A DNA stretch of 64,000 nucleotides from Patescibacteria group bacterium (GCA_023380635.1 JAMCRP010000001.1:173305-237304); one strand, 5' to 3'; numbered from the stretch's first letter, positions 11,631 through 27,453 are shown. Program-made: numbers and translations. The notes: generated from the letters alone by a model not told the origin.

Positions 11631-13541
11631 CTACAACTTGACGTTGATTTCCTTATCTTCCGTCAGCGCGAACTCCTGCGATTTATTGTTGACGATTACC
11701 TTGTAGTCAATGCCATCTGTCCCCGGTTGTTTTTGAATCAGGAGATTATAGTTGCCGTTCTTTTTGAAATTGCCGGCAACTTTATACTTAATCTGAATTT
11801 TAGCTAAGCCTTCCGGCACGACCGTAAAGAAGCCGTCAACAACCGTGTGGTCCAGATCATCAAAAGTCTGGCTTTTGCTCTCAAAACCCTTAACATCCGT
11901 AATTGTCGCCCCTTTTGGCAGGTAAACTCGCAGGTAGTCCCGGTATATTCCTGCCAGGCAGAGCCCGGAGACCCGTTCCAAAGAACAGTTATCCGCTGCG
12001 TGGGGATAACGGTATTCAAGATTAAGGGTTTCATCGGCGCCGCTGTCAGTTATCGAAACTTCCTTGGTCACTTTAGGAACAATGTAGAGGTTAGACTTGG
12101 CCCCGGCCAGATTGGCGTCATTGACATGAAGGTAGTCACCGTTATAAGTTTTAATCCGGCCGCCGAAATTCAGAGCCTCAATCCCCCGTTGGGCATCTTC
12201 ATTATGAACATAGAATAGAATGTGTTTTTGCAGAGCTTCGCTCATCGCCGCCTGGAAAAGTGGAGCATAAACCTGTTTACTTCCAGTCATGGCTTTTTTC
12301 ATTAAAGATTGCAGAAGAACCCCGATAATATCTTTGCGGCTGCCCCGTTCGTAGGCTTTTGGCTCATCAGCATATTTTTCCAGTTCATAAATTACCATCG
12401 GACAGTCACACTGCGGAACTTTTGTGGTCGTAAAAGTGGTGCCGTAAGTGTCCACCGGCCCCAAAACATTCATTAGACTCACTAGAACATGGGTGTCCAT
12501 GGCAATGATGCCATCAATGTTTTGCTTGGCATTTGAAGTGGCATACAGATCTTCAAAGGTTTTCATGGAAGAGTAATAATCCGGCGAGAAGTTGGCGTCG
12601 CGCATCCGCCAGCCATAAACATTAAGATATCGGGAAATGGGATCCGGAGGAGCAACATGTTTGGTCATCGTGTCATCAAGTTTGTAAATATCGTCGGAAG
12701 TCTGAAGAGAAATTTTGCCCTTGTCTACCTGAAAAATCGCATAGGCGGTAATAAAACCGCCGGTTGGACGCAGTTCCGCATCATTTTGGAACAAAACCAT
12801 GTACTTTTTTGGCTGCTGGGAACCGAGCATTTCCGGCAACTGCTTGACCATCGGCCGCGCTTCGGTCAAAAGATTGTCAGCCATATCAATTGCTTCTTTC
12901 GCCCCCACAATCTGGCTTCTAATCGGTTTTCCCTGAAAGCTTTCCGGGTAACGGTTCGGGTCGACCTGATCCAGAGCCTTGCGCATCGCACTGACTTTAA
13001 CCGCAATCTGGTCAATCTGAGGTTTAACCTTATCCAGGGTTTCCACCATCATCGCAATCCGTTCTTCAGTAGTTCCCCCGGTGAAGCTTCCCTGGCCTTT
13101 AAGACCCAACAAATCAGCGTATGGCTCAATGGCCGTCGCTGTTATCTGAGCGGCCTCCAAACCCTGCTTACCGGCATCCATGAAGGCAAAAGCATCGTTA
13201 GTGTAACCGCCCAGAAGGGGAATAAATCTAGTCCAGCCAATCAGGTTCAGATCCGATTGAACGACCGTTAACTGCTTTTGTGTCGCGACAACAGCGTCTC
13301 TGGTTTTGGCGATATCCTGAGATTTAGCCGCGTCTTTAATTCCCAGCGCCAACCGATAAGTTGTCTTGGCATCGGCGTAAAGGCGAAACAGCGGTAATCC
13401 TAACGCCAGAACTAAAACCACGACGGCAATTATTAATACTAAAAGCCCTTTTTTATGCGGCAGTTTCTTTTCCGTCATAACCGGTTCGGCTTTCGCCACA
13501 AAGGTTTCATCCGGTTTAATTTCTTTGATTTCTTCTTCCAT
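11631..13541 (-). CDS. large N-terminally membrane-anchored extracytoplasmic protein (DUF4012-like, family assignment unverified)
   Basis: 636 aa with one TM (LLVLIIAVVVLVLALGLPLF) and no catalytic motifs recognised. It lies directly upstream of the glycosylation locus. Confidence 0.5.
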   Translation of the reverse strand: MEEEIKEIKPDETFVAKAEPVMTEKKLPHKKGLLVLIIAVVVLVLALGLPLFRLYADAKTTYRLALGIKDAAKSQDIAKTRDAVVATQKQLTVVQSDLNLIGWTRFIPLLGGYTNDAFAFMDAGKQGLEAAQITATAIEPYADLLGLKGQGSFTGGTTEERIAMMVETLDKVKPQIDQIAVKVSAMRKALDQVDPNRYPESFQGKPIRSQIVGAKEAIDMADNLLTEARPMVKQLPEMLGSQQPKKYMVLFQNDAELRPTGGFITAYAIFQVDKGKISLQTSDDIYKLDDTMTKHVAPPDPISRYLNVYGWRMRDANFSPDYYSSMKTFEDLYATSNAKQNIDGIIAMDTHVLVSLMNVLGPVDTYGTTFTTTKVPQCDCPMVIYELEKYADEPKAYERGSRKDIIGVLLQSLMKKAMTGSKQVYAPLFQAAMSEALQKHILFYVHNEDAQRGIEALNFGGRIKTYNGDYLHVNDANLAGAKSNLYIVPKVTKEVSITDSGADETLNLEYRYPHAADNCSLERVSGLCLAGIYRDYLRVYLPKGATITDVKGFESKSQTFDDLDHTVVDGFFTVVPEGLAKIQIKYKVAGNFKKNGNYNLLIQKQPGTDGIDYKVIVNNKSQEFALTEDKEINVKL

Positions 13542-13555
13542 GAGTTTTCAGGATA

Positions 13556-14194
13556 TCACCATTTGTTAAACATTGCCAAGGGGGTTTTTAAAACGATCAC
13601 AAAGTCTCTCCAGATAGATTTGTTACGGGCATACGCAGCGTCAAGAGCTACCCGTCGATCCCAAGAAATGGCATTACGACCGCTTGTTTGCCAAGGACCA
13701 GTGAGCCCCGGTTTTACCGAAAGCGCTACATCCAATTCCTTTTTTAAGCCTGGAAAGAATTTTAGTTGCTGAGCAATTTCATCACCAAAAATATCATCAT
13801 TTCGATATGCTCTCGGACCAACCATACTCATGTCGCCCGCAAGAATATTCCAAAGATTAGGTAATTCGTCGAGGCTATATTTTCTAATAAATCTTCCCAC
13901 TCTGGTAATCCTGGGATCCTGGTTCGCCGGGAGTTTCCAACCCTCTTTTTTCTTAAAATTCTTCATGAACTCTCTATCTTTGGCCAGCATCTTGTCAACA
14001 TTGTCAAACATAGATCGGAATTTCCAGATAAAAAATATTTTTCCGTCCTTGCCCACTCGCCTCTGTTTATAAATACATGGACCTGGCGAGTCTAATTTAA
14101 TTGCCAAGGCAATTAGAAGAAGTAAAGGAGAAAACAGGGTAATTACAAACAGTGCCGACAGAATATCCGTGGTTCTTTTAAGAATGTCGTACAT
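13556..14194 (-). CDS. small monotopic phosphoglycosyl transferase (bacterial sugar transferase family, PglC/WbaP C-terminal-like): initiating enzyme
   Basis: Membrane re-entrant helix, then KFRSM...DELPNLWNILAGDMSMVGPRA, the hallmark of PF02397 polyprenyl-phosphate hexose-1-P transferases. Confidence 0.85.
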   Translation of the reverse strand: MYDILKRTTDILSALFVITLFSPLLLLIALAIKLDSPGPCIYKQRRVGKDGKIFFIWKFRSMFDNVDKMLAKDREFMKNFKKKEGWKLPANQDPRITRVGRFIRKYSLDELPNLWNILAGDMSMVGPRAYRNDDIFGDEIAQQLKFFPGLKKELDVALSVKPGLTGPWQTSGRNAISWDRRVALDAAYARNKSIWRDFVIVLKTPLAMFNKW

Positions 14195-15293
14195 ATTCGC
14201 GATATTTTCTTTCGGCAGTTTCCTTAAATTCTTTTTTAAACCTTTCTTTCGAAAACCTCTGTGCGTTAGTATTGCAATCTTCTCTGATTACTCTTACTTC
14301 TCTAATTTCTCGGATTTTCGCGGCCAAGCTCTCCGGTTTCGGCTCGTCAAAAAACCAGCCGGTTTTCCCTTCAACTACCGTTTCCGTCACCCCTCCTTTT
14401 TTATATGCAATTACCGGTTTACCATGGGCCTGGGCCTCCACCGCGACAATGTTAAAATCCTCTTCTCCGGGAATTACGACCGCCCGGCAGTTTTCATAAT
14501 ACCGGTTCAGCTCTTCGTCTGTCAAATAGCCCAAAAACTCTATATTCTTTTTTGCCCTCCCCTTCAATCTGTTTTCTTCTTTCCCTGTCCCGATTATTTT
14601 TAGCGGCAACCCCAGCTGGTTAAACGCGCTAACGGCAATATCCAGCCTTTTTTGCGGCGCCAACCGCGAAACAATTAAATAATATTCCCCGGCGTTTGAG
14701 GCTTGAGATTTGCTTGGGATTTGGGATTTGGGATTTGGGATTTCTACTGGTGGATAGATTACTTCGCTCTCCCGATTGTAGATTCGTTTTATCCTTTCCT
14801 GTACTGCCCGAGAAATAGTCAAGTACTGGTCCGGCCTGGCAGCCACAATCCTGTCGTACCAGCGCAAATACTTCACTAACGGATTACTGACGGCCCGAAA
14901 CCAACCCGGCTTGGCAGAAAAATAATCGTCATGACTATCCCAAAGATAACCGACCGGGTTCAGGCAGTAGCAAAGATGGAAAGTTTCGGGCTTAGTAATG
15001 ATCGCCTTTGCAAATTCATGAGTGACGGAAATTACCAAATCATATTTATCAAAATTGAAGCTTTCAAAGGCTAAACCCATTAAATATGGGTACATTTCGT
15101 GTGCATTTTTAGGAAGCGGTAATTTTTGAAGAAAAGATGTCCTCACATCAAAGCTATCAGCCCATGGCGTCAATCTCTTATCATAGACAGAGGTATAGAG
15201 CGGAGCCTCTGGCCAAATCTCATGCAGGGCCAAAAGTAATCTCTCTGCCCCGCCAAACTTATTTATCCGATCGTAAACTAGAGCTACTTTCAT
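14178..15293 (-). CDS. GT4 glycosyltransferase carrying an internal heptanucleotide repeat
   Basis: N-terminal GGAERLL and C-terminal GT4 motifs. A 7-nt x 4 repeat lies at the inter-domain linker. Confidence 0.8.
   Translation of the reverse strand: MKVALVYDRINKFGGAERLLLALHEIWPEAPLYTSVYDKRLTPWADSFDVRTSFLQKLPLPKNAHEMYPYLMGLAFESFNFDKYDLVISVTHEFAKAIITKPETFHLCYCLNPVGYLWDSHDDYFSAKPGWFRAVSNPLVKYLRWYDRIVAARPDQYLTISRAVQERIKRIYNRESEVIYPPVEIPNPKSQIPSKSQASNAGEYYLIVSRLAPQKRLDIAVSAFNQLGLPLKIIGTGKEENRLKGRAKKNIEFLGYLTDEELNRYYENCRAVVIPGEEDFNIVAVEAQAHGKPVIAYKKGGVTETVVEGKTGWFFDEPKPESLAAKIREIREVRVIREDCNTNAQRFSKERFKKEFKETAERKYREYVRHS
14714..14741. repeat. perfect tandem repeat (TTGGGAT)x4 inside a GT4 CDS (coding strand ATCCCAA x4)
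   Basis: Read directly from the sequence: four perfect 7-nt units, in frame at four copies, encoding IPNPKSQIP. One unit more or less would shift the frame. Confidence 0.9.
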
Positions 15294-16338
15294 AAATTTT
15301 ACGAGTTTCCTTTACGCAGCGTTCCCAACTATATGATTTGGCTCTTTTATATCCACGATCTGTTAGTTCTTTCAATTTTTCCTTATCCTTTAGTGTCTCC
15401 TTTATTACTCTGGCAATATCTTTAGGATCATTTTGATTAAAGTAGACCGCTGCGTCGCCATACACTTCATGAAACACAGGAATATCCGAAACGATTGCCG
15501 GGCAGCCAACACTCATGGCTTCCAATGGAGGGATGCCAAAGCCTTCCATTTTCGAAGAGGTGACAAAAGCTGAGGCGTGGCGATACCAGTCAGCTAGCCG
15601 GCTATTGGGCACTTCACCAATAACTTCGACATATTTTGATTTTGGTAGCCGGGGATAGAAAAATTTATCATTCCCTACCAGAACAAGTTTCATTTTTAAA
15701 ATTTCCGCAGCTTTGATCAAGGTCTCAACATTCTTATGCGGATGGGCATTGCCCACATACAGGAGATAGGGTTTGACCGTTAATGGTTTGCCGGGCTTTG
15801 AAGTGCCTTCCAAAGCTCCTGATTCATAAATCACGGAAATCTTATCGGGATCAGCCTTGTAATGTTTTACTATCTCACTTTTAGCGTCATTGGACAGGGT
15901 AAAAATCCTTTCCGCCCGGAAGACACTAACCCAATTAACCAGATGGTAACCGGTTTTTTTAATGACATACAACCAACCGGGCAGCGTCGACCATTTGCCG
16001 GTTTTATAGTGATCAAATATCAAGTCGTGAATAGTAATGACAAATTTGCCGGGATAAAGAATCGGGAAGGAAAAATAGGGGAAATGTAACAGATCCAATT
16101 TTTCCCGGGAGAATATCCAGGGAAGAAGCAGCTGCTCTCTTAGCGTATGCCAGTGGACATCCGCCAGAACTTTTTTCCATTTCGGGCTGGGCATTTCAAC
16201 CGCCTCGAATTCTTTTTTGGAAAAAAACCAGACATATTCGTTTTCTTTATCGATTTCAGGAAGATATTTAAAAATTGAACGAATGTAGCGACCAACACCA
16301 GTTTCGTTCCACAGCCGGGCGTCAATGCCGATCCTCAT
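15259..16338 (-). CDS. GT4 glycosyltransferase
   Basis: N-terminal MRIGIDARLW...GVGRY and a C-terminal E-x7-E-type GT4 domain (EGFGIPPLEAMSVGCP). Confidence 0.8.
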   Translation of the reverse strand: MRIGIDARLWNETGVGRYIRSIFKYLPEIDKENEYVWFFSKKEFEAVEMPSPKWKKVLADVHWHTLREQLLLPWIFSREKLDLLHFPYFSFPILYPGKFVITIHDLIFDHYKTGKWSTLPGWLYVIKKTGYHLVNWVSVFRAERIFTLSNDAKSEIVKHYKADPDKISVIYESGALEGTSKPGKPLTVKPYLLYVGNAHPHKNVETLIKAAEILKMKLVLVGNDKFFYPRLPKSKYVEVIGEVPNSRLADWYRHASAFVTSSKMEGFGIPPLEAMSVGCPAIVSDIPVFHEVYGDAAVYFNQNDPKDIARVIKETLKDKEKLKELTDRGYKRAKSYSWERCVKETRKIYESSSSLRSDK

Positions 16339-17276
16339 TAGTCCCTCCCCCGCCGTAAATAATTGACCAAACCGATTCCGCCAAGCACCGCGCTGCGAAA
16401 CAGTTCTGGGTACTTTTTGCGATAATGTTTATCGTAAAAAATGCGCATCGCGTCATAACGGGCTTGGTTCCACCTTGCCTGATTGTCAGGATCAACTTTG
16501 GCTACGGATTTTGAAGTAGATTTTAAACCCGAACTGGCTCCCCAATAGTGCATAATTTTAACATCCGGAACAAAATAAACTTTGTAGCCCAGCTCCTTTA
16601 CCCGGTAGCACATCTCGATATCTTCGCCATAGGAAAAATAATCCTCGTCAAACCAACCAATCTTGTCTAATAATTTCTTTCGAATTAGTAAAAATGTCCC
16701 GGACACGGCATCAACCTCATGAACTTTGTCTAAAGGTAAATAGGTAGCCGTATAGCCGGAAAACATTTTGCTTTTGGGAAACAGTTTTGCCAGGCCTGTA
16801 AAATAGGCTAATGAGTTCCAAGGTGTGGGAAACCCCCGGTGAGAAGCATAGTATTGACCACCGTTGGGTAATAGCGTCAGGCAGGTGGAAATGCCGGCAT
16901 CAAGAGTATAGTCCATAAACTGAACCATTCGCTCCAGAGTTCCGGGGTATACTTGCGTGTCGGAATTAAGAAACAGAACATACTCCCCTTTTGCCTTTTC
17001 CCTAGCGCAATTATTACCTCGTGTGAATCCGCAATTTTCTTTGTTTTTTATTAACTCCACTTCCGGAAACTCTTTCTGAACCATTATTACTGAGTTGTCC
17101 GTACTGGCGTTATCGATCACTATCACCTGATAGTCCGGACGCGAGGGTATGGAAGCCAAGCACTGCCGCAACAACGCTTCAGTATTGTAGTTGAGAATAA
17201 TAATTGACAATTTAACTTTTGCCGGCAGTTTCTTCATAGATTTTTTCCAGACTGGTAGAAATTTTTCCCCAGTCAT
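16338..17276 (-). CDS. GT2 glycosyltransferase (GT-A fold)
   Basis: LSIIILNYNTEALLRQCLASI...VIVIDNASTDNS and DxD. Confidence 0.8.
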   Translation of the reverse strand: MTGEKFLPVWKKSMKKLPAKVKLSIIILNYNTEALLRQCLASIPSRPDYQVIVIDNASTDNSVIMVQKEFPEVELIKNKENCGFTRGNNCAREKAKGEYVLFLNSDTQVYPGTLERMVQFMDYTLDAGISTCLTLLPNGGQYYASHRGFPTPWNSLAYFTGLAKLFPKSKMFSGYTATYLPLDKVHEVDAVSGTFLLIRKKLLDKIGWFDEDYFSYGEDIEMCYRVKELGYKVYFVPDVKIMHYWGASSGLKSTSKSVAKVDPDNQARWNQARYDAMRIFYDKHYRKKYPELFRSAVLGGIGLVNYLRRGRD

Positions 17277-18405
17277 AATTATCAGCCACTAACTTTTTAG
17301 CGTTGGTGGACAGACTTTTTGCCAGAGGTTTATTCAGCACTGCTTCTACCGCCAGTTTTGCCAGTTCATTTTTGTTATTACTAATCAGGGCATGCTTCCG
17401 GTCAATCGCCCCAATCCCTTCAATGCCGATTTCCGTGGAGACCACCGGCAAATCTGAGGCCATCGCTTCCAGAATTTTGTATCTGGTCCCCCCGCCGCCA
17501 AAAAGCGGTGCCAGAAGAACTGCTGAGCCCTGATAAGCTGTCCTTATGTCTTCGACATCGTCGGATACGACAATGCTGTCACCAGCCAGATTTTTAATGG
17601 CTTCCGTGGGACTTCGTCCCACAATCCACAAGGTTGCCTCGGGAAGCTTCTTTTTTATTTCGGGCCAGATTTCTCTTACCAGAATTTCCACCGCCTCCCG
17701 GTTCTGTAACCAGTTAAAATTTCCTACAAACAGGAATTTTGTGCCCGTTGATTTACCGTTAAGGATTTTTTTAGTGAAGAAATCCATGTCCACGCCGTTA
17801 GGAACAATACCAACATCCAGTCCCGGCGCCAGTTCTTTCATTTTTTCCTTGTCCGCTTCCGACATGGCCACTACTTTTTTAGCCTTTTGCCAAAAATATT
17901 TTTCCCAATATTTATGTTTAGCGACATCGACATACAACAACGGTTTTACCGGCCAAAGCCGGGAAGTTTGCGTGAAATGTTGGTAGACAAGATATTCAAT
18001 CGTCTGCTCGGCAAGAAGAACCGGAACCGTAGTGGAGGCAATGTTGGGCATAATGTAATAAGTTTCCACATGGATTAGATCATACTTTTCCTTTGCCAGT
18101 TCGGCGGAAATCGCCTCAGTCACCCGGCCGCTACGATACATGTTCACCAAATAGGGATAAGGGGATACCGCGGTTACCAAAAGCTTTTCCGGCGAAGCCC
18201 AGGCTTTTTTCCGGCCAAAGATTTCCACTTTACGGCAATATTTTCGCAATTGGGTTAAATCCGGTTCCGGTTGATCTGTCCGCAAAAAAGAAAACGAAGT
18301 GATTTCATGTTTTCGGGAAAGATTCTTAATTAGATTGAAAGTTCTCGTCTGGCCACCAGAATTTGGTGGATACGGCACGTATGGCGTAAACATCAAAATT
18401 TTCAT
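17212..18405 (-). CDS. GT4 glycosyltransferase
   Basis: MKILMFTPYVPYPPNSGGQTR N-terminus and a GT4 C-terminal domain. Confidence 0.8.
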   Translation of the reverse strand: MKILMFTPYVPYPPNSGGQTRTFNLIKNLSRKHEITSFSFLRTDQPEPDLTQLRKYCRKVEIFGRKKAWASPEKLLVTAVSPYPYLVNMYRSGRVTEAISAELAKEKYDLIHVETYYIMPNIASTTVPVLLAEQTIEYLVYQHFTQTSRLWPVKPLLYVDVAKHKYWEKYFWQKAKKVVAMSEADKEKMKELAPGLDVGIVPNGVDMDFFTKKILNGKSTGTKFLFVGNFNWLQNREAVEILVREIWPEIKKKLPEATLWIVGRSPTEAIKNLAGDSIVVSDDVEDIRTAYQGSAVLLAPLFGGGGTRYKILEAMASDLPVVSTEIGIEGIGAIDRKHALISNNKNELAKLAVEAVLNKPLAKSLSTNAKKLVADNYDWGKISTSLEKIYEETAGKS

Positions 18406-18408
18406 AAC

Positions 18409-21400
18409 TTACTTGGGAAGCTCGCTGTCGGGGACCAGCTGGATAATTACATACTTGTCCGTTTGAGCCAGAAGCTTGTAAGGGTAGAACTTTTTATTGG
18501 TGACGGGTTTGATTTCCCAAACCGGCCACGCGTCAGCCATGATCTTTTTAGTCTGGTCGTCCAAATTAACGCTGACATAATACTGTGCTCCTTCATTTAT
18601 CAATTTATCAAGGCTCCCGTCCATGATCGGCCAACCTTTGCGGTCAGTTTGGTAAAGAAAGGCGGTATCGCCGTCATAGGGCGCAATTACTTTGGCCCGC
18701 CAATCCGTCAGCTCCCGAACTCTCTGCCCGGCTTCGACAATTTCCGGATGATTGATGTTGTAATAGTCTTTGATAAAGTACCAGCCGAAAGCCAGCATGA
18801 ACAAAACAGTAATGACTGCCAGAATTTTGCTCCGGAAATTTTGTGATAGCAGAAAGTCCAGTCCCATGGCAGCCAAAATTACCAGCGAGGGGATAATTAA
18901 AATCTGGTAGTAATCATGCCGGACATTGCCAGTCGCAAAAATAGTTAAATATAAAAGACTGCCGGCAAACAAAACCAGAGGGAAATATTTGTACTTGCCG
19001 GCGGTATTTCTTACCAACCCAAGACCAAGTAAGATCAACCCCCAGTATCCCAAAATTTCCCGTCCGATCCGGTCAGCAAAGATCCAATACCAGAAAGCTC
19101 CTTTAAATCTGATCCCGTCACCGTTAAGCAGCCAGTCGTTGGCCGGTATGCCAGCCGGATACTGCTGCATCCACCAGCGCCAGAGAAGTAATGGCACCAA
19201 TGAAATGATCCCGAAAAGACCTAAAATCGCCCATTGTCGCCAGTTTAAGCCGAATCCCACTAACCAAAAGTAGGCCAAGGGAATCAACAGAAAAGCTGCA
19301 TAAGGTTTAATTAGCAAGGCGACAATCGCCAAAATCAGAGCCAGAACAAGATATCTTTTCCTTTGGGAGAAAACATAGGAACTGGCAAACCACAAGGCCC
19401 CAAGCGAGGCGGCTACCATCGAAGGATCAGGCAAAACGGTCCTGCCGAAATAGATATTGTACGGTAAAACGGCAAATAGACCGGCGGCCAGGTAGGCGAT
19501 CCGCCGGGACAAAAACCGCCGACAGAGCAGAAAAATAAATACTGCTCCAATTGCCGTCGCCAAAGCTGAGGTAAGCCGCCCAGCCGCCTCTACGGTCCAG
19601 TCGGCTAGTATCCGGTCAACAAAAAGTGACGCGGCATTATATATGGGGAACTCCACAAATCTTATACCCAGCGGATTGGGTTTTCCCGAAGCCATGGAAG
19701 AAAGGTCGTCGTATGTCGGATACAGCCAATTAATGGTTTTGTTGCGCAAGAAATCCCGGGTCACGGCCGAAGTATCCGCCTGGCGCCAGGAATGCCAGTC
19801 GGCAATCGGCGAATTAATTTTGTAAGTCCGGATCGACAACGCAACAACTGCGATAACCGCCACCCAGAGAAAATCGGACAACAGAAACTTTTTCACCCGG
19901 GCGAGGAAATTTTTGAAAGAAAATTCAATTCGTAGCGGTTCCATATTCGTCTTAATTTTTTCCCGGGTTAAATAAAGTGACCCAAGAGTCATCCCGGACA
20001 CCCCCCAGAAGACATAAGCAACCTTACTGGATTCGAAAATATCGATCATAGTAGCGTTTACCAAAAGCCCGCCGATCAGGCCGATGAAGCCGGCAACCAG
20101 CGAATATAAGAGCGGATCCCGTATCCCTCCAAGGCTGCGAAATGCGATCCAGGCCATCACTAATAAAGTTCCAAAAAAGGCCGCGAAACCTAAGAATCCG
20201 GTTTCTCCCAAAGCCCGCAGATAGTCATTGTCCGTCGATTCTCCTTCAGTATAGTCATATTTGTTTGCCTGGCTAAGGGTTGCATAGCCTTTTCCCAAAA
20301 GCGGATCCATCTCAAAACCGGCAATCGCCCGGGGCCAGGTCGTATCAAACCTGATACCGGTAGACAAGTCGAACATTAAAGCGTTTTGTGAATAAGTCCT
20401 TTGTGTCGGCACTAAAACCGTAGCTCCACTGGCAGTCTTTTTCGGCATTAAAAGGGGGATTTCGTTTCCGGTGACATCACTGGGCTTCATTGGTGTTGGC
20501 GGCTGGTCAGAAGGAGTCGTTACCGCCGCGATATTATTTTCCAAAAACGTGGCGTTTTGGGTCGGGGCATTGCCGGCAGGCCTTAACAAAATTTCCCGCA
20601 CAGCAGAGAACCTGTCAGCAAACTTAAAAAGAGTCAGAAATCTTGAAGACAGGTCTCCGAACGAGAGCATTAATAAGATACTTAAAAATGCCGCCGCTGC
20701 CCAACGGCTTACCCCCCAACCCAACCCTTTTTTAAAGGTCCAAAGAAAGATAACCACCGACAGCCCCAGCATATATCCAGCAAAGGAAATCCGCGAAGCC
20801 GTAAGAATTAACAGCCAAAAACCTCCGGCCAGAAGCAAGACAATCCCCAATTTTGCCAGCTTATTCTTTAAACCAAAAAGGAAACTCCAGCAAAGCGTCA
20901 GGGCAATCACCAGATACCCGGCCAGGTCGTAGTGCCCGCCGAAAGTCGAAAGAACCCGGGCGTGAGCCGTGAGATATAACCACCAGCCTTTGGCAAATTC
21001 CCGATTCATTGTGGAGAAAGCCGGCCAATACAGATATTTTTGTCCGTAGCCATAGATAATCACGCCCAACAGGGTCAGAAAAAATAGTCCCAGGTATATT
21101 TTCAGCGCCTTCATAGATCTTATTGAAGCAAAGAAAACGAAAAATAAGGAAAAGTACTCGGCCCGGCGCAGCCAGTGCAGGAAGGTTTTTCCGGCAAAAA
21201 GATATTGCAAGGGGACCGTCTGGATAATAAATATTGCCGTGATTACCGAGAGCAATCCGATGACTAAATATCCGATCAGCCCAAGTGAAACGGCGTTAAA
21301 AACAAGTTTGATTTTCCGGCGCAATATCCAGAGCAGAAAAATCACAATGGTCGCCGCCACAAAGAAATCTTCAAGCCTGACTCGAACATTGTAACCGTAC

Positions 21401-21510
21401 AAAATGTCAAACAGCGGCCACTTCGGGTAAAGAGGAATAAAAACCAGCAAGAATCCGGCTAAAACCGCCAGAATATTATTGTCCAGCCAATGCAGCCATT
21501 TGGCTATCAT
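18409..21510 (-). CDS. 1033-aa fusion: O-antigen ligase/polymerase-like (Wzy_C/WaaL) polytopic domain + GT-C (PMT/ArnT-like) polytopic domain + C-terminal soluble domain
   Basis: The N-terminal half carries Wzy_C hallmarks (SRISFAGYMLGL loop; TDNDYLRALGETGFLGF). The second half is a new TM bundle with the periplasmic acidic motif WHSWRQADTSAVTRDF typical of GT-C enzymes. Confidence 0.6.
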   Translation of the reverse strand: MIAKWLHWLDNNILAVLAGFLLVFIPLYPKWPLFDILYGYNVRVRLEDFFVAATIVIFLLWILRRKIKLVFNAVSLGLIGYLVIGLLSVITAIFIIQTVPLQYLFAGKTFLHWLRRAEYFSLFFVFFASIRSMKALKIYLGLFFLTLLGVIIYGYGQKYLYWPAFSTMNREFAKGWWLYLTAHARVLSTFGGHYDLAGYLVIALTLCWSFLFGLKNKLAKLGIVLLLAGGFWLLILTASRISFAGYMLGLSVVIFLWTFKKGLGWGVSRWAAAAFLSILLMLSFGDLSSRFLTLFKFADRFSAVREILLRPAGNAPTQNATFLENNIAAVTTPSDQPPTPMKPSDVTGNEIPLLMPKKTASGATVLVPTQRTYSQNALMFDLSTGIRFDTTWPRAIAGFEMDPLLGKGYATLSQANKYDYTEGESTDNDYLRALGETGFLGFAAFFGTLLVMAWIAFRSLGGIRDPLLYSLVAGFIGLIGGLLVNATMIDIFESSKVAYVFWGVSGMTLGSLYLTREKIKTNMEPLRIEFSFKNFLARVKKFLLSDFLWVAVIAVVALSIRTYKINSPIADWHSWRQADTSAVTRDFLRNKTINWLYPTYDDLSSMASGKPNPLGIRFVEFPIYNAASLFVDRILADWTVEAAGRLTSALATAIGAVFIFLLCRRFLSRRIAYLAAGLFAVLPYNIYFGRTVLPDPSMVAASLGALWFASSYVFSQRKRYLVLALILAIVALLIKPYAAFLLIPLAYFWLVGFGLNWRQWAILGLFGIISLVPLLLWRWWMQQYPAGIPANDWLLNGDGIRFKGAFWYWIFADRIGREILGYWGLILLGLGLVRNTAGKYKYFPLVLFAGSLLYLTIFATGNVRHDYYQILIIPSLVILAAMGLDFLLSQNFRSKILAVITVLFMLAFGWYFIKDYYNINHPEIVEAGQRVRELTDWRAKVIAPYDGDTAFLYQTDRKGWPIMDGSLDKLINEGAQYYVSVNLDDQTKKIMADAWPVWEIKPVTNKKFYPYKLLAQTDKYVIIQLVPDSELPK

Positions 21511-21515
21511 TTTAT

Positions 21516-22112
21516 TTATTGAAATAAGCGGGCCCGGCCCAGTTTGTAGTGTAAGTCTTTATTTTTTCGCTCTCCTATTTTAACAGCCGGCACCCCTCCG
21601 ACAACAGTCAGTTCCGGCACATCTTTGGTCACCACAGCTCCGGCAGCAATTATCGCTCCGTTACCCACTTTAACTCCAGGCAAAATAATGACGCGCGGGC
21701 CGATAAAAACATAATCGCCGATTTCGACAGGCGCTTCGATTGGGTCAAAGCCCTCGGAAGTAGTATCATGCTCAGAGTTGTAAATCATTACCTGGGAAGC
21801 GATATCGGTATGATTGCCAACAGTTAGTTTGTCCCGACCGTCAAGAAAAGCATGATCGCCAACAATTGAATCTTGCCCAATAGTGATATTTTTTGGTTGG
21901 AAGAATCTGGCCCAGGTATGAATGGTGCTCCCTTCGCCGATTTTTATGCCGGCCAGAGCATAGAAGAAATGCCGAACAAACCTGCAAGGAACCTGACCGA
22001 CACAATTTAAAACCATCAGCTCAAAATCCAGACAATAATTGTAGAAGCGGGTCACAATCTTCGGCCAAGCCTGGCTAAAACTTAAGTTTTTTCCGTATTT
22101 GTCTTTAAACAT
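21516..22112 (-). CDS. hexapeptide-repeat (left-handed beta-helix) acetyltransferase, sugar O-acetyltransferase-like (WcaF/WbbJ type)
   Basis: Tandem hexapeptide repeats (IGDYVFIGPRVIILPGVKVGNGAIIAAGAVV). Confidence 0.75.
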   Translation of the reverse strand: MFKDKYGKNLSFSQAWPKIVTRFYNYCLDFELMVLNCVGQVPCRFVRHFFYALAGIKIGEGSTIHTWARFFQPKNITIGQDSIVGDHAFLDGRDKLTVGNHTDIASQVMIYNSEHDTTSEGFDPIEAPVEIGDYVFIGPRVIILPGVKVGNGAIIAAGAVVTKDVPELTVVGGVPAVKIGERKNKDLHYKLGRARLFQ

Positions 22113-23178
22113 TTTTAAGCACTTCCAGCGTTTGTTTTGCTGTGTCTTCCCAATTATACCGTTTTACCAGTTTTAAACCAGCTTTGATCTGGTTTTTGCG
22201 CTCAGAATCGCCCATTTCCAGAACTTTCTCCAAGGCCGAGCGGATACTTTCAACCTCATATGGATTCTCGATATAAATGGTACACTCTCCGCACACTTCC
22301 GGAAGCGAAGACACTCGGGAAACCACCACCGGAACCCCTGTCGCCATTGCTTCCACCGCCGGAATACCAAAGCCTTCATACAAGCTAGGTAGGACATAAG
22401 CAGCCGCCCCTTTCATCAAACCAGCCACTTCGGTATCAGGAATATATCCTGTGAATTCCACTCTATCACCGAGCTTGCTGGCTATTTCGAAGACATCCTG
22501 ATACATCCACCCGCCTCGGCCTTCGTTTTTCATGCCGCCGATCACCAGTTTAATATCCTTATCTTCCAGCTGACCAAAAGCTTCAATTAAGCGGACCAGG
22601 TTTTTGCGCGGCTGAAGAGTTCCCAGATAGAAAAAATACTTATCCTTCCTGGCCGGTTTTACTTTTTCATTAAAGCGAGCCTGATCATACCCTAGATGGG
22701 TAACCACAATTTTCTCCGGCGGCAGGTGGTAAAGCTGGACAAGGTCGCCTTTGGTCGCTTCGGAAATGGCGATAACTTTTTTAGCCTGCATCGCCGAAAG
22801 CCGCGTCCAGTACTTAAGTTGGTACAAATCTTTTTTCTTGAAGTACTGGGGGAATTTTTCAAAAGCCAGGTCCATCACGGAAATCACTGACGGACACGAT
22901 AGATATAGCGGGGCATAGTGTGTCGGAGTAAAGAGAACATCCGGAGGATTAGCTAGTAACCTCTTTTGTAAACCCGTCAGCGTCCAGAGGTTTTTGGGCC
23001 CAAAAACCTCATAAGGCAAATCCGGCATCTCCGGCAAGGGCGGATTTTCTAAATACACTTGGAATTTGGTGCTTGGAGTTTGGAATTTTACGAACTGCTT
23101 AAGCAGTTCGTAAGCATACTGCCCCACCCCGACCCGGTGGGAGACATTGGCTTCGTTGCCGTTTATGCCAATAGTCAT
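22105..23178 (-). CDS. GT4 glycosyltransferase
   Basis: C-terminal EGFGIPAVEAMATGVPVV. Paralogous to the GT4 genes at 24282, 15259 and 57308. Confidence 0.8.
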   Translation of the reverse strand: MTIGINGNEANVSHRVGVGQYAYELLKQFVKFQTPSTKFQVYLENPPLPEMPDLPYEVFGPKNLWTLTGLQKRLLANPPDVLFTPTHYAPLYLSCPSVISVMDLAFEKFPQYFKKKDLYQLKYWTRLSAMQAKKVIAISEATKGDLVQLYHLPPEKIVVTHLGYDQARFNEKVKPARKDKYFFYLGTLQPRKNLVRLIEAFGQLEDKDIKLVIGGMKNEGRGGWMYQDVFEIASKLGDRVEFTGYIPDTEVAGLMKGAAAYVLPSLYEGFGIPAVEAMATGVPVVVSRVSSLPEVCGECTIYIENPYEVESIRSALEKVLEMGDSERKNQIKAGLKLVKRYNWEDTAKQTLEVLKNV

Positions 23179-23197
23179 ATTTCTTTAATTCTACAAC

Positions 23198-24298
23198 TTA
23201 AAACTTTCCAATCGGACCGGTATTTTTCAGAATTATCCAGTGGGTTCGAGACAAGAATTCCAGTCCAACAATTGTCAACCATAAGTATACCGGCAGAACC
23301 GTGGCTCTCAGCCAACTTTCGCTAACTATTTCTCCCACAAAAAGCGCCGGACCAAAAAGTGCCATCGTCAGATAATAGGACGACATGTGATTGGGCAAAA
23401 AATAAAACGGCGCAGCCGCAACTATAAACCAGACCCCGGATAAGAGGAGAATTCTCGCGTGCGGCTGTCTGAGCGAAAAATAACGCATTAAGCCGATTGT
23501 CATCAGGAAAATCAGGACCAAAAATAGCCAGAGAATGACATTGCCAGCTTCGAACCGAACACCCTCAGGCAAATTTAGCCCGCGGAAAAGATACCATCTG
23601 GCTGTCACCAACACCCGGCCACTTAAGGAATAACTATAATCTGAAACCCGCGGCAACCCAATAATCTTCAGTTTGGCCACAAAATAGAACCCGGCCAGAA
23701 CAAAACTGCCAACAAGTCTTTTCGACCAGGAACCGAAATGCCAGCTCAGGACCAGGAAAATAAAGGGTAGGGTCAATGCCAGCTCATTTGAAAAGATCGC
23801 TAAAATCGTTACCAGAAATGTCGCCACAGTTGCGGCAATTCCGGGTTTCAAATAGAGATATGCAGCCAGAAAATAAAACAGGGCACCTAAACTGAAATAC
23901 GAGGTCGCAATCCAAAAAAAGTTCCCAAAAAGTGAAACGTTTAGAGCATAGACAAACGTTCCCGTCATGGCTTTTTCGCGACTTTTTAGAATCTTTTTAA
24001 GGAGCAAATAAACGACGACCACCGTCAAACTATACGCGGCAAATTCAGCAAGATGATAACCAATCGGATTTAGACCAAATAAGTTGCGAGAGAGACCATA
24101 AAAAAGCTGGATGCTTACCGGCCGGTAATGATAAACATCCGGAACGGTGGCCAACCAGTTGCCGGAGCCGGCCATGTCCATGGCAATCCGGTCATCCTGA
24201 AAAAAACGGGCGTTAAAAGAGTCCCGGTAAACAAAGGCCGACAAAAGGATAATGCCACTAAGCAAATAGACTTCCCACTGGTTAAGAAAGTGTTTCAT
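23198..24298 (-). CDS. polytopic membrane protein (about 10 TM) of unknown function, possibly polymerase- or GT-C-like
   Basis: Highly hydrophobic throughout. The start was moved to ATG 24298 (MKHFLNQ) because the longer ORF overlaps the upstream GT4 by 95 nt. Confidence 0.5.
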   Translation of the reverse strand: MKHFLNQWEVYLLSGIILLSAFVYRDSFNARFFQDDRIAMDMAGSGNWLATVPDVYHYRPVSIQLFYGLSRNLFGLNPIGYHLAEFAAYSLTVVVVYLLLKKILKSREKAMTGTFVYALNVSLFGNFFWIATSYFSLGALFYFLAAYLYLKPGIAATVATFLVTILAIFSNELALTLPFIFLVLSWHFGSWSKRLVGSFVLAGFYFVAKLKIIGLPRVSDYSYSLSGRVLVTARWYLFRGLNLPEGVRFEAGNVILWLFLVLIFLMTIGLMRYFSLRQPHARILLLSGVWFIVAAAPFYFLPNHMSSYYLTMALFGPALFVGEIVSESWLRATVLPVYLWLTIVGLEFLSRTHWIILKNTGPIGKF

Positions 24299-25322
24299 AG
24301 GCTTTTGCCGTTTGCCGGGCGGTCTCTTCCCAAGAGAACTTACTGGCCTGGCCGCGGCCCTTCTTAATAAGGGCATCTTTTTTAGATTTGTTCATTTCCA
24401 ATACCGTCTCAATCTTTTCCGCAAGATCGTTTGCATCGAGAGGGTCAATATAAATAGCCGCGTCGCCGCCCACTTCGGGCATGCTGGAAACATTGCTGGT
24501 AATTACCGGACAATCGCAATTGAAGGCTTCTAATATCGGAATTCCGAACCCTTCATAAAGGCTCGGGTACACAAACACCGCGGCGTTAGTGTACAAGTCA
24601 GCCAGCTGATCGTTGGGGACATATCCTAAAAGTTTGACGCCGTTTACTGTTTCTTCTTTCTCGCCCCAACCATATTTTCCGGCAATTACGAGATCGACAT
24701 CCTTAGTTTTTAAGAGTTGATAAGCCTGGATTAGCCGGCCCAGGTTCTTACGTGGTTCTCTGGTTCCGACGGCTAAAATATAAGGCCGCTCGCTTTTTTT
24801 GACTTGCCCCTTCTTCATCGTTGTAGCTTCGTAAATTACTTTAATTTTCTCCTGCGGAATATTGAGAGTTTTCACAATATCTTTTTTGGTCGACTGGGAG
24901 ATAGCAATAACCGCATCCACTTCCTTTTTCACCCATTCGAGTCTTCTTTTTTGCGCGGCGACTATTTTTGGATGTGATGATTGCGGATATTTATAAACGA
25001 CCAGGTCATGAATTGTCGTAATTTTCTTGGCCGTCGTCGGTGGTTGAGTCCAATCAGAAGAATGAAAAACGTCGACCTTTCCGATTAAACTTTCCACCGG
25101 CAGCGTGTGCAGTTGGTTCCATAATATTTCTAGCAGTGTCGGCGGGATCGGAAAAACTTTTGTTTGCGGAAAAACTTTAAATTCTTTCTGCTTGCGAAGA
25201 CTTGCTCCAAACAAAACTAAATCATTATTTGTCTTTAACAGGCTCGTTACGAGGTTTCGGGTATAAATCCCCACCCCCGTTCCGGGAAACGCCATTTGGC
25301 TGATATCTATTCCGACTTTCAT
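24282..25322 (-). CDS. GT4 glycosyltransferase
   Basis: MKVGIDISQMAFPGTGVGIY...EGFGIPILEAF. Confidence 0.8.
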   Translation of the reverse strand: MKVGIDISQMAFPGTGVGIYTRNLVTSLLKTNNDLVLFGASLRKQKEFKVFPQTKVFPIPPTLLEILWNQLHTLPVESLIGKVDVFHSSDWTQPPTTAKKITTIHDLVVYKYPQSSHPKIVAAQKRRLEWVKKEVDAVIAISQSTKKDIVKTLNIPQEKIKVIYEATTMKKGQVKKSERPYILAVGTREPRKNLGRLIQAYQLLKTKDVDLVIAGKYGWGEKEETVNGVKLLGYVPNDQLADLYTNAAVFVYPSLYEGFGIPILEAFNCDCPVITSNVSSMPEVGGDAAIYIDPLDANDLAEKIETVLEMNKSKKDALIKKGRGQASKFSWEETARQTAKAYETLS

Positions 25323-26596
25323 AAAGAGTATTTCCAGATTAACAGATTATTAAAACTTTTTTGCTCTACCAGTTTATACCCGTTAGCCTCAATTATTTGC
25401 CTTTCCAGATCCTTTGGATCGAAAATTTCTTGGACATAACGAACCAAATAGACCGTCTGGGCGCCGTTTAGATTAAAATTAGATTGGTCCATAATTTGCA
25501 AATCCGGTTTGTAGTAAAGAAGCGGGGCGGATTGAGCCAGGTTGGGCATAACGACCCTACTATTAATAGTATCCGCATACTGCGCTGCCGATCGCCAGTC
25601 CTCCCGCCAGAATTTGGGATTAAAGTTGAAATAGACCAAACTTAAAAGACTGACAATAACGACTAATCCGGCAGCGATCTTTCCCGCTCTGGAAAGCAAC
25701 AGAACAAAAGCGGGCAAAACAAATAGGAATCGGAAATATGTAAAGACAGGAACCTTAAAAGAAATTACAGCGGCTAAAAACAGCGGAGTCAAAAACCACA
25801 GCCAAAGTCTTTTTTCCTGATTTCTGGCAAGTGTCAAGAAATAACCTATTCCCACACCGCCGGTGATTAGACCATAGAGATATTTATTCTCGACACTCAC
25901 CCGGCCAAAAATAAATTTTACCGGCAGTAAGGCCAAGGTTTTTAAATTTGTCCGACCCAAAGTATCGCCCCAGGAAGTCCCTGCCGCGCTTAGCCCGTTG
26001 CCCAATTGGTTAAGTAGAAGGGGGACAGCCGGCAGCATGAACAAAATGATGACGGAAAAATATTTCAGAAAAGTTTTTTTATAGCGGGTAATGAAAAAAT
26101 ATACCGGCAGCATCAAGGCCGGAAGATAATCCGTGTACAAAGATAAAACCACAGCGGCAGCAAATGCCAGCCACTTTTTCTCCAGTAAAAAGTAGATAGC
26201 CGACGCCACCAGCATCATCGCCAAAGAATACATCCGGGCTTCTTGGGAATAATAAACCGCGAGGGGATTAACGGCTAAAAATAATGCCGCCAAAATCCCC
26301 GCCCGACGGGAAAAGAGTTTCTCGCCGATTTTGAATACCAGAAACACCGTCACTATTCCAAACAAAACCGATGGAATTCGGCTGGCAATTTCGCTGTAAC
26401 CAAATATTCCGTCCCACCATTTCAGGAACAAATAGTACAGCGGTGGATGGAAATCGCCGGGAGCAAATTTTGAAACCAACTCGCCAAACGTATTGCTTTT
26501 AATCGCCTGAAGGGTTATCGCCTCATCCAGCCAAAGCGACTGGTTCAGGTTGATCAGCCGGACAGCAAATCCCAGTAGTAAAATAACGTAAATCAC
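25319..26596 (-). CDS. GT-C fold glycosyltransferase (PMT_2/ArnT-like, GT39/GT83-type)
   Basis: N-terminal TM, then LWLDEAITL (the DE motif of polyprenyl-P-sugar-dependent GT-C enzymes), then about 10 further TM segments. Confidence 0.65.
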   Translation of the reverse strand: MIYVILLLGFAVRLINLNQSLWLDEAITLQAIKSNTFGELVSKFAPGDFHPPLYYLFLKWWDGIFGYSEIASRIPSVLFGIVTVFLVFKIGEKLFSRRAGILAALFLAVNPLAVYYSQEARMYSLAMMLVASAIYFLLEKKWLAFAAAVVLSLYTDYLPALMLPVYFFITRYKKTFLKYFSVIILFMLPAVPLLLNQLGNGLSAAGTSWGDTLGRTNLKTLALLPVKFIFGRVSVENKYLYGLITGGVGIGYFLTLARNQEKRLWLWFLTPLFLAAVISFKVPVFTYFRFLFVLPAFVLLLSRAGKIAAGLVVIVSLLSLVYFNFNPKFWREDWRSAAQYADTINSRVVMPNLAQSAPLLYYKPDLQIMDQSNFNLNGAQTVYLVRYVQEIFDPKDLERQIIEANGYKLVEQKSFNNLLIWKYSL

Positions 26597-27453
26597 TTGT
26601 ATTTTTTTTCTCCAAAAAATGACAGCAGGACGCTGGTTTCAACAGCGCCGTTAAAAACAAGTTTAAAAATAAAAAACTGCCAGTCGGGTAATTTAAGAAC
26701 CGCCCAAAAGGGACAATAGCGGAAAAGGTTGTAAATCCGGCGGATTATGTTCTTTGTCAAAAATTCATTTTTTCCGAACCACCGGGCCTGTTTCCAAATC
26801 TCTGGCAAAGTATCCGGGCTTCGGTGATAATAAACAGCGCCTTTGGCAGCTACCGGATACGCGTTCAGTTTTTCCGCAATAGTCCAGTCATCCGTATAGC
26901 CGACATTGGTATCAAAACCGCCCATGGAAAGAAATTTTTCCCTAAGAATCGCGCGAAAAACTTTGTTCCTTTCTTCATCGGCCTTTTCGCCTTCCAGTTT
27001 CTCCAGTAAAGTTTTCCCGAATTTATATAAACCAGTGGCTTTTGCAGCATATCCCCGCGGATCCATTTTATCGACGCTTCGACCAAAGTTCAGATTCCAA
27101 TACCTGGCCAAGGGTTTATCTTTATTAAGAAGATATTCATCTTCACTGTATGTCCCGATAGCCTTCCCGCTCACTATCGGAGCGATCAGCTTTTCCACGA
27201 AATCCGGCGCAAACTCCATATCCGCGTCTACAAAAACCAGAATATCTCCTTTTGCTTTGCTGGCCCCAAAATTTCTGGCCGCTCCCGGTCCCTTGTGGCT
27301 TTGTTTGTAGGTTGCGTATTTTACTGAGCCATCCGTAGAGCCATCATCGACAACAATTATTTCCAAAGGGATGGTTTGCTTGGCAAGGCTGGCCAGGCAA
27401 TTTCCGATAACCTCTTCCTCATTAAATATTGGTATAATAACCGATACTGTCAT
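26593..27453 (-). CDS. GT2 glycosyltransferase
   Basis: VSVIIPIFNEEEVIGNCLASL...IIVVDDGSTDGS...VFVDADME. Confidence 0.8.
   Translation of the reverse strand: MTVSVIIPIFNEEEVIGNCLASLAKQTIPLEIIVVDDGSTDGSVKYATYKQSHKGPGAARNFGASKAKGDILVFVDADMEFAPDFVEKLIAPIVSGKAIGTYSEDEYLLNKDKPLARYWNLNFGRSVDKMDPRGYAAKATGLYKFGKTLLEKLEGEKADEERNKVFRAILREKFLSMGGFDTNVGYTDDWTIAEKLNAYPVAAKGAVYYHRSPDTLPEIWKQARWFGKNEFLTKNIIRRIYNLFRYCPFWAVLKLPDWQFFIFKLVFNGAVETSVLLSFFGEKKYK

Follow-up and report, generated by a model that had tools for sequence, protein, structure and literature searches.

A perfect heptanucleotide repeat in the inter-domain linker of a Patescibacteria GT4 glycosyltransferase gene, and one-unit frameshift alleles in its orthologues

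Introduction

A heptanucleotide repeat governs the phase variation of the glycosyltransferase gene pglE in Neisseria (PMC7157529), and in Haemophilus influenzae heptanucleotide repeats of 8-14 units are candidate mediators of phase variation (PMC2651432). The mutation rate of simple-sequence tracts climbs with repeat number, and tracts of long units can be hypermutable from about three units (PMC4235727). A bias towards heptanucleotides among the long repeats of most prokaryotes is ascribed to polymerase slippage (Mrazek 2007, via PMC4679880; PMC4692102). Described here is a perfect array of the heptanucleotide TTGGGAT within a glycosyltransferase family 4 (GT4) gene of a Patescibacteria group bacterium. 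It lies in a stretch of 64,000 nucleotides (nt), hereafter the window (GCA_023380635.1, JAMCRP010000001.1:173305-237304), and had been picked out from the sequence as a candidate slipped-strand phase-variation switch (the original prediction).

To our knowledge, nearly all known cases in which repeat slippage causes phase variation come from pathogens adapted to a host. In a full-text literature search, no paper was found that brings together Patescibacteria and either phase variation or simple sequence repeats, and the earlier remark that a switch of this kind would be notable in an organism of the Candidate Phyla Radiation (CPR) type still stands. If shown in Patescibacteria, it would give these ultra-small, regulator-poor and largely uncultured bacteria a simple means of surface-glycan variation.

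Results

The focal repeat and its enzyme

The array was found in the sequence and by Tandem Repeats Finder (TRF) as a tract of perfect period 7 and 30 nt in length (TTGGGAT x4.3, 14714-14743), which confirms the four full units originally placed at 14714-14741 and extends them slightly. It is the sole perfect repeat in the 64-kb window with at least three copies of a unit of 5 nt or longer. When the window was simulated 300 times with a third-order Markov model, no perfect period-7 tract exceeded 21 nt, and a chance origin of the (ATCCCAA)x4 tract is excluded. With its tandem 7-nt unit and a length beyond chance, it is a heptanucleotide long simple-sequence repeat as described by Mrazek (2007).

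On the coding strand, (ATCCCAA)x4 begins in phase 0 at codon 185 of the open reading frame (ORF) at 14178-15293(-), and the array spans codons 185-193 (IPNPKSQIP) together with the first base of codon 194. A degenerate tail follows on its 3' side (Table 1) and probably consists of decayed repeat units; its ATCTCAA is also the unit of an x4 array, likewise perfect, that the orthologue L165 (see below) carries at this place in the linker. When the copy number was altered in silico, the frame stayed open at one, four and seven copies, giving products of 364, 371 and 378 amino acids (aa); three or six copies brought a stop at 203 or 210 aa, and two, five or eight copies a stop at 216, 223 or 230 aa. 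The array shows two features of a contingency locus, being a non-triplet unit inside an ORF in which the gain or loss of one unit causes a premature stop, and the anticipated truncation after the N-terminal domain is reproduced by the stops at 203 and 223 aa. Inspection of the 3- and 5-copy frames in the window found no obvious restart codon for the C-domain.

The GT4 family is defined by an EX7E motif in the C-domain, and both glutamates of the pair (E278 and E286) are invariant in 35 aligned orthologues. Pfam placed Glycos_transf_1 at aa 192-346 with 102.7 bits, far over the 26.4-bit cut-off, and Glyco_transf_4 at aa 14-184 with 24.1 bits, slightly below the cut-off of 28.5 bits. The AlphaFold2 model is a GT-B fold with a mean predicted local distance difference test score (pLDDT) of 91.5, in which residues 193-197 are the sole low-confidence stretch and residues 184-204 are without secondary structure except for a three-residue helical turn at 188-190. 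Because of these domain limits and the model of residues 184-204, the repeat is placed in a disordered inter-domain linker, in agreement with the intact frame and linker peptide first described for it. The alignment of the 35 orthologues shows a highly conserved enzyme with one stretch, from YPPV to YxLxVSRL, that is hypervariable in both length and sequence. A hairpin or RNA element was also considered and rejected, as folding is not predicted for the DNA of the repeat region (0 kcal/mol), and an Rfam scan of the whole 64 kb returned no family at the gathering score.

Natural one-unit frameshift alleles in orthologues

Slipped-strand frameshift alleles arise in nature at this linker site in orthologues of the focal gene. 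These alleles surfaced via cluster membership at 90% identity or more, having been hidden in the full-length-ranked search. In L174 (Ca. Blackburnbacteria) the linker carries (TTCAACG)x4 and the gene, found on at least 24 contigs, encodes a 359-aa product. Its counterpart L168, a 23-kb contig present in two samples, has (TTCAACG)x3 and a 199-aa product, with the C-domain in another frame; over 5,607 aligned nt the two show 0 mismatches and a single 7-nt gap. The second pair consists of L089, with (TTCAAAA)x3.4 and an intact product of 369 aa, and the 67-kb contig L161, with (TTCAAAA)x2.4 and the gene split into ORFs of 198 and 168 aa; these differ by two mismatches and one 7-nt gap over 6,604 nt. 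Since in each pair the slip is the sole indel, accompanied by 0 and 2 substitutions, slippage at these arrays of 3-4 units must be far faster per site than base substitution. Both the x3 and the x2.4 variants stood at consensus frequency in their own samples. The sources of the contigs are ERZ27254752 and ERZ27254756 for L168/L174, and ERZ27247228 and JGI Ga0078972 for L161/L089. The comparison of orthologues proposed with the original prediction thus did reveal length polymorphism (x4 in L174 versus x3 in L168; L089 versus L161), and these contig pairs already display, in natural samples, the predicted one-unit frameshift, the first of them in an orthologue whose copy number equals that of the window array.

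Two further candidates were set aside. P0176, an N-domain-only protein of 87% identity, was rejected as an off allele, its contig (L164) having a run of N in the linker at 2.4x coverage, which marks it as an assembly artefact. P0122 (L162), on a contig of 1.4 kb, runs from within the array into unrelated sequence; it may be a chimera or a rearrangement and was not used. The objection that four copies are too few to slip was dropped, given that published classes permit hypermutability of long-unit tracts from about three units, and given the observed x4 to x3 event.

Heptanucleotide arrays across orthologous loci

The survey took in 160 orthologous loci (L001-L160), the first 80 of which amount to 1.23 Mb. 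Perfect lag-k runs of at least 18 nt in these 80 loci numbered 22 for k=7, five for k=14 and one each for k=8 and k=15, with 0 for all other k from 2 to 13. TRF arrays, counted at a score of at least 36, had period 7 in 124 cases, period 6 in six and period 8 in 32 among the 80 loci and the window. After the removal of near-duplicate loci, the full set held 190 period-7 arrays in 1.76 Mb, with copy numbers centred on 4-5; 132 of them (69%) were internal to ORFs, and their density per 10 kb was 0.83 in coding and 3.5 in non-coding DNA. Inside ORFs they are most frequent 50-60% of the way along, where the GT-B linker lies. ORFs with an array are GT4 genes more often than control ORFs without one (64/105 versus 37/122; Fisher p = 4.6e-6).

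At the focal linker itself, a period-7 array (same TRF threshold) is present in 26 of 143 non-redundant orthologues (18%). The units vary, and include AAATTCC, AAGTTCA, AAAATCA, TTGAACG, AGCTTAC, TCATCCT, AAATACA and AATTTCC among others. Two seed sites were recognized in the linker, one at the codons of the 5' end, for the conserved E-K-F-x-I motif, where GAAAAATTCCAAATT is already 7-periodic, and one at the codons of the 3' end, for N-T-K-Y-F-L. A strict rule of 1+3n units on a 51-nt base linker was tried and fails, as the base linker spans 48-63 nt among orthologues. One 90%-identity cluster joins L163:271-1446 and P0120 (391 and 371 aa), of which the former has 20 additional in-frame residues in its linker; this longer linker is made up of GAAGATA- and ATCTACC-type heptamers and a 28-nt duplication.

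Examples of period-7 arrays in these loci are L016:2585-2616, L026:3287-3317, L061:5973-6005 and L074:17450-17485. In several gene families arrays recur at fixed positions, at about aa 180-240 in GT4 genes of about 380 aa, about aa 63-74 in ORFs of about 300 aa, and about aa 365-375 in ORFs of about 490 aa. Arrays at the 3' end of genes (L074:17450-17485, L013:1444-1472 and L022:1783-1807) provide the stop codon and a short C-terminal tail, while others lie just 5' of a start codon (L033, L100 and L148) or span a stop/start junction (L152). Listed with these are the arrays L100:2626-2649, L148:8946-8974, L152:653-684, L155:973-1021, L159:4381-4411 and L160:4500-4533. A change in copy number at such gene boundaries could shift the spacing of ribosome-binding sites or alter protein tails.

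Source lineage and gain of the array

The exact focal protein is found in only one genome of the National Center for Biotechnology Information (NCBI) collection, that of the Patescibacteria group bacterium, on a 559-kb contig; after it, the nearest full-length relatives, at 73-78% identity, are from assembled genomes of the Microgenomates type. A look-up of contigs encoding the exact protein returned no record for it, a scan of metagenome contigs with a gapped pattern of the flanks gave 0 matches for copy-number variants of the window locus, and no N-domain-only relative was found above 87% identity. As a gene it is a conserved core orthologue across Microgenomates (55-78% identity).

The closest orthologues without an array have linkers of 18 residues, the length of the one-copy form of the window gene, and therefore the window has gained exactly three units (+21 nt) in a lineage-specific manner. 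Many distant orthologues (55-58% identity) carry window-like peptides, e.g., PLQIPNPKSQIPNK. Three close relatives, with flanks 91-97% identical, have the same linker length of 81 nt and entirely different arrays, and this combination indicates a rapid turnover of arrays under a constraint on length and frame.

Split genes, other disruptions and inserts at the linker

In one lineage both this GT4 and the neighbouring GT4 are divided into an N-domain ORF and a C-domain ORF whose stop and start codons overlap (L166:1976-4079 and L167:3-2118; N-domains of 173 and 189 aa, C-domains of 176 and 173 aa). The arrangement is the same in the four places shown, of six contigs with the protein, one of which is 569 kb, and it looks like a stable split, i.e., a two-polypeptide GT-B arrangement. 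A similar split with an ATGA overlap occurs in L029:6898-7955 and in L139, and in several other lineages the N-domain ORF ends directly after YPP.

The sister lineage of the window organism (N-domain 87% identical) contains both intact alleles (375 and 370 aa) and disrupted ones, on contigs of up to 53 kb. There the disruption does not stem from a heptamer array but from a stop codon, which falls in a patch of 77 nt where changes are clustered. The patch (L170:3566-3642, compared with L001) covers the linker and the first strand of the C-domain, and the remaining 5.4 kb are identical; it comprises a 15-nt gap and some 17 substitutions, with G to T frequent among them, and one of these, GAA to TAA, truncates the GT4 at 197 aa. 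The same patch is found in L171 and L172, and with one additional change in L173. Recombination and localised mutagenesis are both possible origins.

At the focal linker site of L165 (L165:2032-2700), the perfect (ATCTCAA)x4 array precedes an insert, some 150 nt long, with two GC-rich hairpins and an in-frame TAG, after which the C-domain resumes in the same frame. A short GC-rich palindrome, CCTGCC(T)TGCCGGCA(A)GGCAGG, occurs inside the coding regions of different genes in different genomes (L100:6565-6585, L148:1949-1969 and the L148 linker, L058:12800-12820, L069:5429-5457), and also in the linkers of L016, L022, L023, L095, L119 and L001. Some of the linker palindromes are flanked by direct repeats of the local heptamer, such as GAAATTC on both sides of a 21-nt insert in L100, and the inserts of L022 and L148 are alike in DNA and read in different frames. 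This suggests a tiny DNA element resembling repetitive extragenic palindromic (REP) sequences or miniature inverted-repeat transposable elements (MITEs), one that may tolerate in-frame insertion. The idea, prompted by the inserts of L100 and L148, that heptamer arrays are footprints of a tiny palindromic mobile element, left as 7-bp target duplications, gained no support from a scan of 110 genic GC-rich hairpins, which showed no consistent 7-nt flanking duplication.

In several loci (L018, L026, L105/L106, L110, L112, L124, L125, L137, L138 and L140) the tblastn match to the GT4 is 1378-1669 nt long against the usual length of about 1100 nt, an excess of about 270-570 nt over the usual gene; in L026 the first 350 nt or so of the match lie outside the linker-bearing ORF. 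These long matches suggest insertions or disruptions within or before the N-domain.

The glycan-assembly cluster and other features of the window

The focal gene belongs to a same-strand cluster (Table 1) whose order begins with genes for DUF4012, Bac_transf, GT4 (focal), GT4, GT2, GT4 and a Wzy_C+PMT_2 protein of 1033 aa, and continues with a hexapeptide acyltransferase, GT4, a membrane protein, GT4, PMT_2 and GT2. Membership of a cluster with Bac_transf, Wzy_C, PMT_2, GT2 and GT4 genes ties the focal GT4 to a surface function of the sort associated with contingency loci, and the surface-glycan setting in a CPR-like organism that had been claimed for it is upheld by this cluster and by the Patescibacteria genome. 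Because the focal gene overlaps the downstream Bac_transf gene, an early stop in the GT4 could also lower the translation of Bac_transf.

Two further heptanucleotide arrays, both degenerate, are present in GT4 genes of the window. That at 23059-23088 lies near the N-terminus (about aa 30-40, KFQTPSTKFQV) of the GT4 gene 22105-23178(-) and is a relic of a focal-type repeat; that at 51432-51451 encodes AKFQVQNSQSQKNSKIKI in the linker of the GT4 gene 50913-51986(-).

Table 1. Coordinates of the focal gene, its repeat and related features in the window.
Feature	Position	Strand	Details
GT4 (GT-B fold) glycosyltransferase gene	14178..15293	-	371 aa
Focal GT4, N-domain	14742-15293		aa 1-184
Focal GT4, linker	14682-14741		aa 185-204
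Focal GT4, C-domain			aa 205-371; EX7E motif = E278...E286
Perfect heptanucleotide array	14714..14743	-	coding strand (ATCCCAA)x4.3; + strand TTGGGAT
Degenerate tail, 3' of the array on the coding strand	14694..14713	-	GCAA ATCTCAA GCCTCAA AC, codons for SKSQAS
G-quadruplex motif	14716	+
G-quadruplex motifs	12334, 56079	-	reverse-complement coordinates
Same-strand glycan-assembly cluster	11631..27453	-	~16 kb
Bac_transf gene (initiating sugar-phosphate transferase), downstream	13556..14194	-	start overlaps focal GT4 stop by 17 nt
Upstream GT4 gene	15259..16338	-	end overlaps focal gene start by 35 nt
Degenerate heptanucleotide array	23059..23088	-	TTGGAAT-like x4.3, 73% matches
Short degenerate heptanucleotide array	51432..51451	-	AATTTTG x2.9

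Discussion

The focal repeat is a genuine hotspot for slipped-strand frameshifts, and a role as a low-rate on/off switch is plausible. On balance, it appears rather probable that the array is a true slippage microsatellite, tolerated in the linker, which acts as a stochastic generator of on and off states, at a low to moderate rate, for one step of surface-glycan assembly. A Patescibacteria-wide bias towards 7-nt repeats would supply such arrays, with selection keeping only in-frame copy numbers in coding DNA, and in this lineage a single ATCCCAA may have been expanded by replication slippage to four copies (+21 nt) at a disordered linker that would be the one place in the protein able to tolerate seven extra residues. 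With four copies the enzyme would be made; a one-unit slip to three or five copies would shift the frame, leave an N-domain fragment of 203 or 223 aa and abolish the enzyme, and, as a polar effect, translation of the initiating transferase, whose gene overlaps on the downstream side, might fall as well. A second slip could restore the frame. We infer that the focal array slips at a rate comparable to that of its orthologues and that its slips are reversible, and the window locus can reasonably be expected to yield both off variants and revertants as often as a 'mutable' tract would (see below). Of the phase-variation switch put forward in the original prediction, the frameshifting part is supported by the one-unit alleles of two orthologues, while switching that is adaptive, reversible and of high frequency is unproven.

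Several observations speak against a dedicated switch. All 26 linker arrays among the 143 non-redundant orthologous loci are in frame, and the sole frameshifted orthologue in that sample, L029, carries no array. When one or two units were added or removed in silico at each of the 190 period-7 arrays, 16 frameshift candidates emerged, and all those inspected were at the gene end or start-proximal, none being an off allele. Where other contigs of one species, taken from independent assemblies, were compared in pairs (97.3-99.99% identity), no period-7 array differed in copy number, and the unchanged arrays include the perfect AAATACA x4.9 and AAATCTA x4.6. Many orthologous arrays have decayed to 70-90% matches, array density is about four times higher in non-coding DNA, the peak within genes falls at the mid-gene linker and not near 5' ends, and arrays are also present in the genes for a LepA-like GTPase, PolA and MraW. 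The decay, the linker position and the arrays in housekeeping genes and intergenic DNA fit mutational bias plus tolerance over selection for switching. The existence of stable split genes means that a break in the linker is not always null, and the window species was met only once across all collections searched.

It has also to be asked whether the array is an evolved contingency locus, maintained by selection for frequent, reversible switching of the glycosyltransferase in order, for example, to escape phages or to alter attachment to host cells, with the arrays in glycan genes forming a 'phasome'. This is rather unlikely, and adaptive phase variation at the focal repeat is unproven, yet the adaptive reading is kept alive by the enrichment in glycan genes, on/off polymorphism in several lineages and regulator-poor biology. 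In its favour are the two natural one-unit frameshift alleles with almost no accompanying point substitutions, the recurrence of arrays at the same linker in 18% of orthologues, the GT4 enrichment (p = 4.6e-6), and the intact and disrupted alleles held side by side in the sister lineage. The passage from one to four copies by single-unit steps would cross out-of-frame states, so that the gene could be off for a while, and phase variation is described as a typical trait of small, regulator-poor genomes (PMC11475388). Intact alleles nevertheless predominate, the stability and decay of arrays and their spread to mid-gene linkers, housekeeping genes and intergenic DNA argue against such selection, and an insertion-tolerant linker explains the GT4 enrichment equally well; the focal gene is, moreover, a conserved core orthologue of Microgenomates, unlike typical accessory contingency genes. 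A bolder version, in which heptanucleotide switches across the phylum toggle GT-B enzymes between fused (on), frameshifted (off) and stably split forms, so that bacteria with few regulators that live attached to other cells diversify their surface against phages or for host attachment, and in which (ATCCCAA)x4 would be a member of this set that happens to be on, is speculative and must be called unlikely.

The opposite view, that the array is an incidental and stable linker microsatellite, a neutral relic of a past burst of slippage, and that the frameshifts of its relatives are deleterious mutations or pseudogenes, would account for the constant copy numbers between the conspecific contigs compared, for the uniformly in-frame linker arrays (26/26) and for the commonness of decayed ones. 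It also agrees with heptanucleotides being the most abundant class of long simple sequences in most prokaryotes, a bias attributed to polymerase slippage (PMC4679880; PMC4692102). It is nonetheless improbable, as no indel but the slip separates the contigs of either pair over 5.6 and 6.6 kb, next to 0 and 2 substitutions, and the slipped alleles had reached consensus frequency in their samples. A structural role is very improbable, namely that GGGATTTGGGATTTGGGATTTGGG on the template strand folds into a G-quadruplex that modulates transcription or replication, four units being favoured because they provide four G-tracts, in the way suggested for the GGGNATC repeats of Xanthomonas and Nostoc. 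The array does match a canonical G3N4 x4 motif, and the window has three such motifs where about 0.8 would be expected; moreover, a preference for four units has been reported for G-rich heptamers (PMC4692102). Orthologous units at the same site that lack G-runs (AAATTCC, TTCAAAA, TTCAACG, AAATACA) still number 4-5 copies, however, and the window unit, GGGATTT, differs from GGGNATC, has no second tandem copy in the window and is intragenic. A slippage microsatellite that is tolerated in the linker and generates on and off states is, then, the reading preferred here.

Even if the focal array were incidental, the dominance of heptanucleotide arrays, their recurrence at the linker and the fused, frameshifted and split forms of the enzyme would be useful for the annotation of metagenome-assembled genomes, where 'partial' or split glycosyltransferase calls at the linker may be real alleles and not errors.

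Comparison with known systems

Neisseria pglE, whose glycosyltransferase acts in pilin/protein O-glycosylation, resembles the window gene in having an intragenic 7-nt repeat in a glycosyltransferase that builds a glycan, with a change of one unit shifting the frame (PMC7157529); the two are likened by repeat and gene type, not by homology. In pglE, switching and its phenotypes have been shown experimentally, and the host is a human-adapted proteobacterium, whereas the window tract has only four units, lies in an inter-domain linker and has its variation deduced from orthologues. The H. influenzae loci, with tetranucleotide repeats at lipopolysaccharide-type surface structures, AACAACC x13/x8 in a TonB-dependent receptor gene and AATTTTG x14 in hmw1A (PMC2651432), have in common with it slipped-strand mispairing, non-triplet units in ORFs and truncated products, and their repeat number varies between strains (PMC2651432). 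Those tracts usually have 8-30 or more units and differ between nearly any two strains, in contrast to the Patescibacteria arrays of 3-5 units, which are mostly invariant between conspecific contigs.

The heptanucleotide repeats of other prokaryotes (Calothrix, Beggiatoaceae TAACTGA, Xanthomonas/Nostoc GGGNATC) likewise form short arrays of 7-nt units with a mode near four (PMC4679880; PMC4692102). They are mostly intergenic, and those of Beggiatoaceae and Xanthomonas/Nostoc are dispersed copies of a single unit, whereas in the Patescibacteria arrays the unit differs by site, 69% are intragenic and glycosyltransferase linkers are preferred. The window array does not belong to the GGGNATC family of Xanthomonas/Nostoc, with which it has only the four G-tracts in common. 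The framework that would seem to fit it best is the distinction between 'mutable' and 'hypermutable' classes made by Bidmos and Bayliss (2014, PMC4235727), in which a 'mutable' locus has a tract of intermediate length that stems from genome composition and gives rise to occasional adaptive frameshifts.

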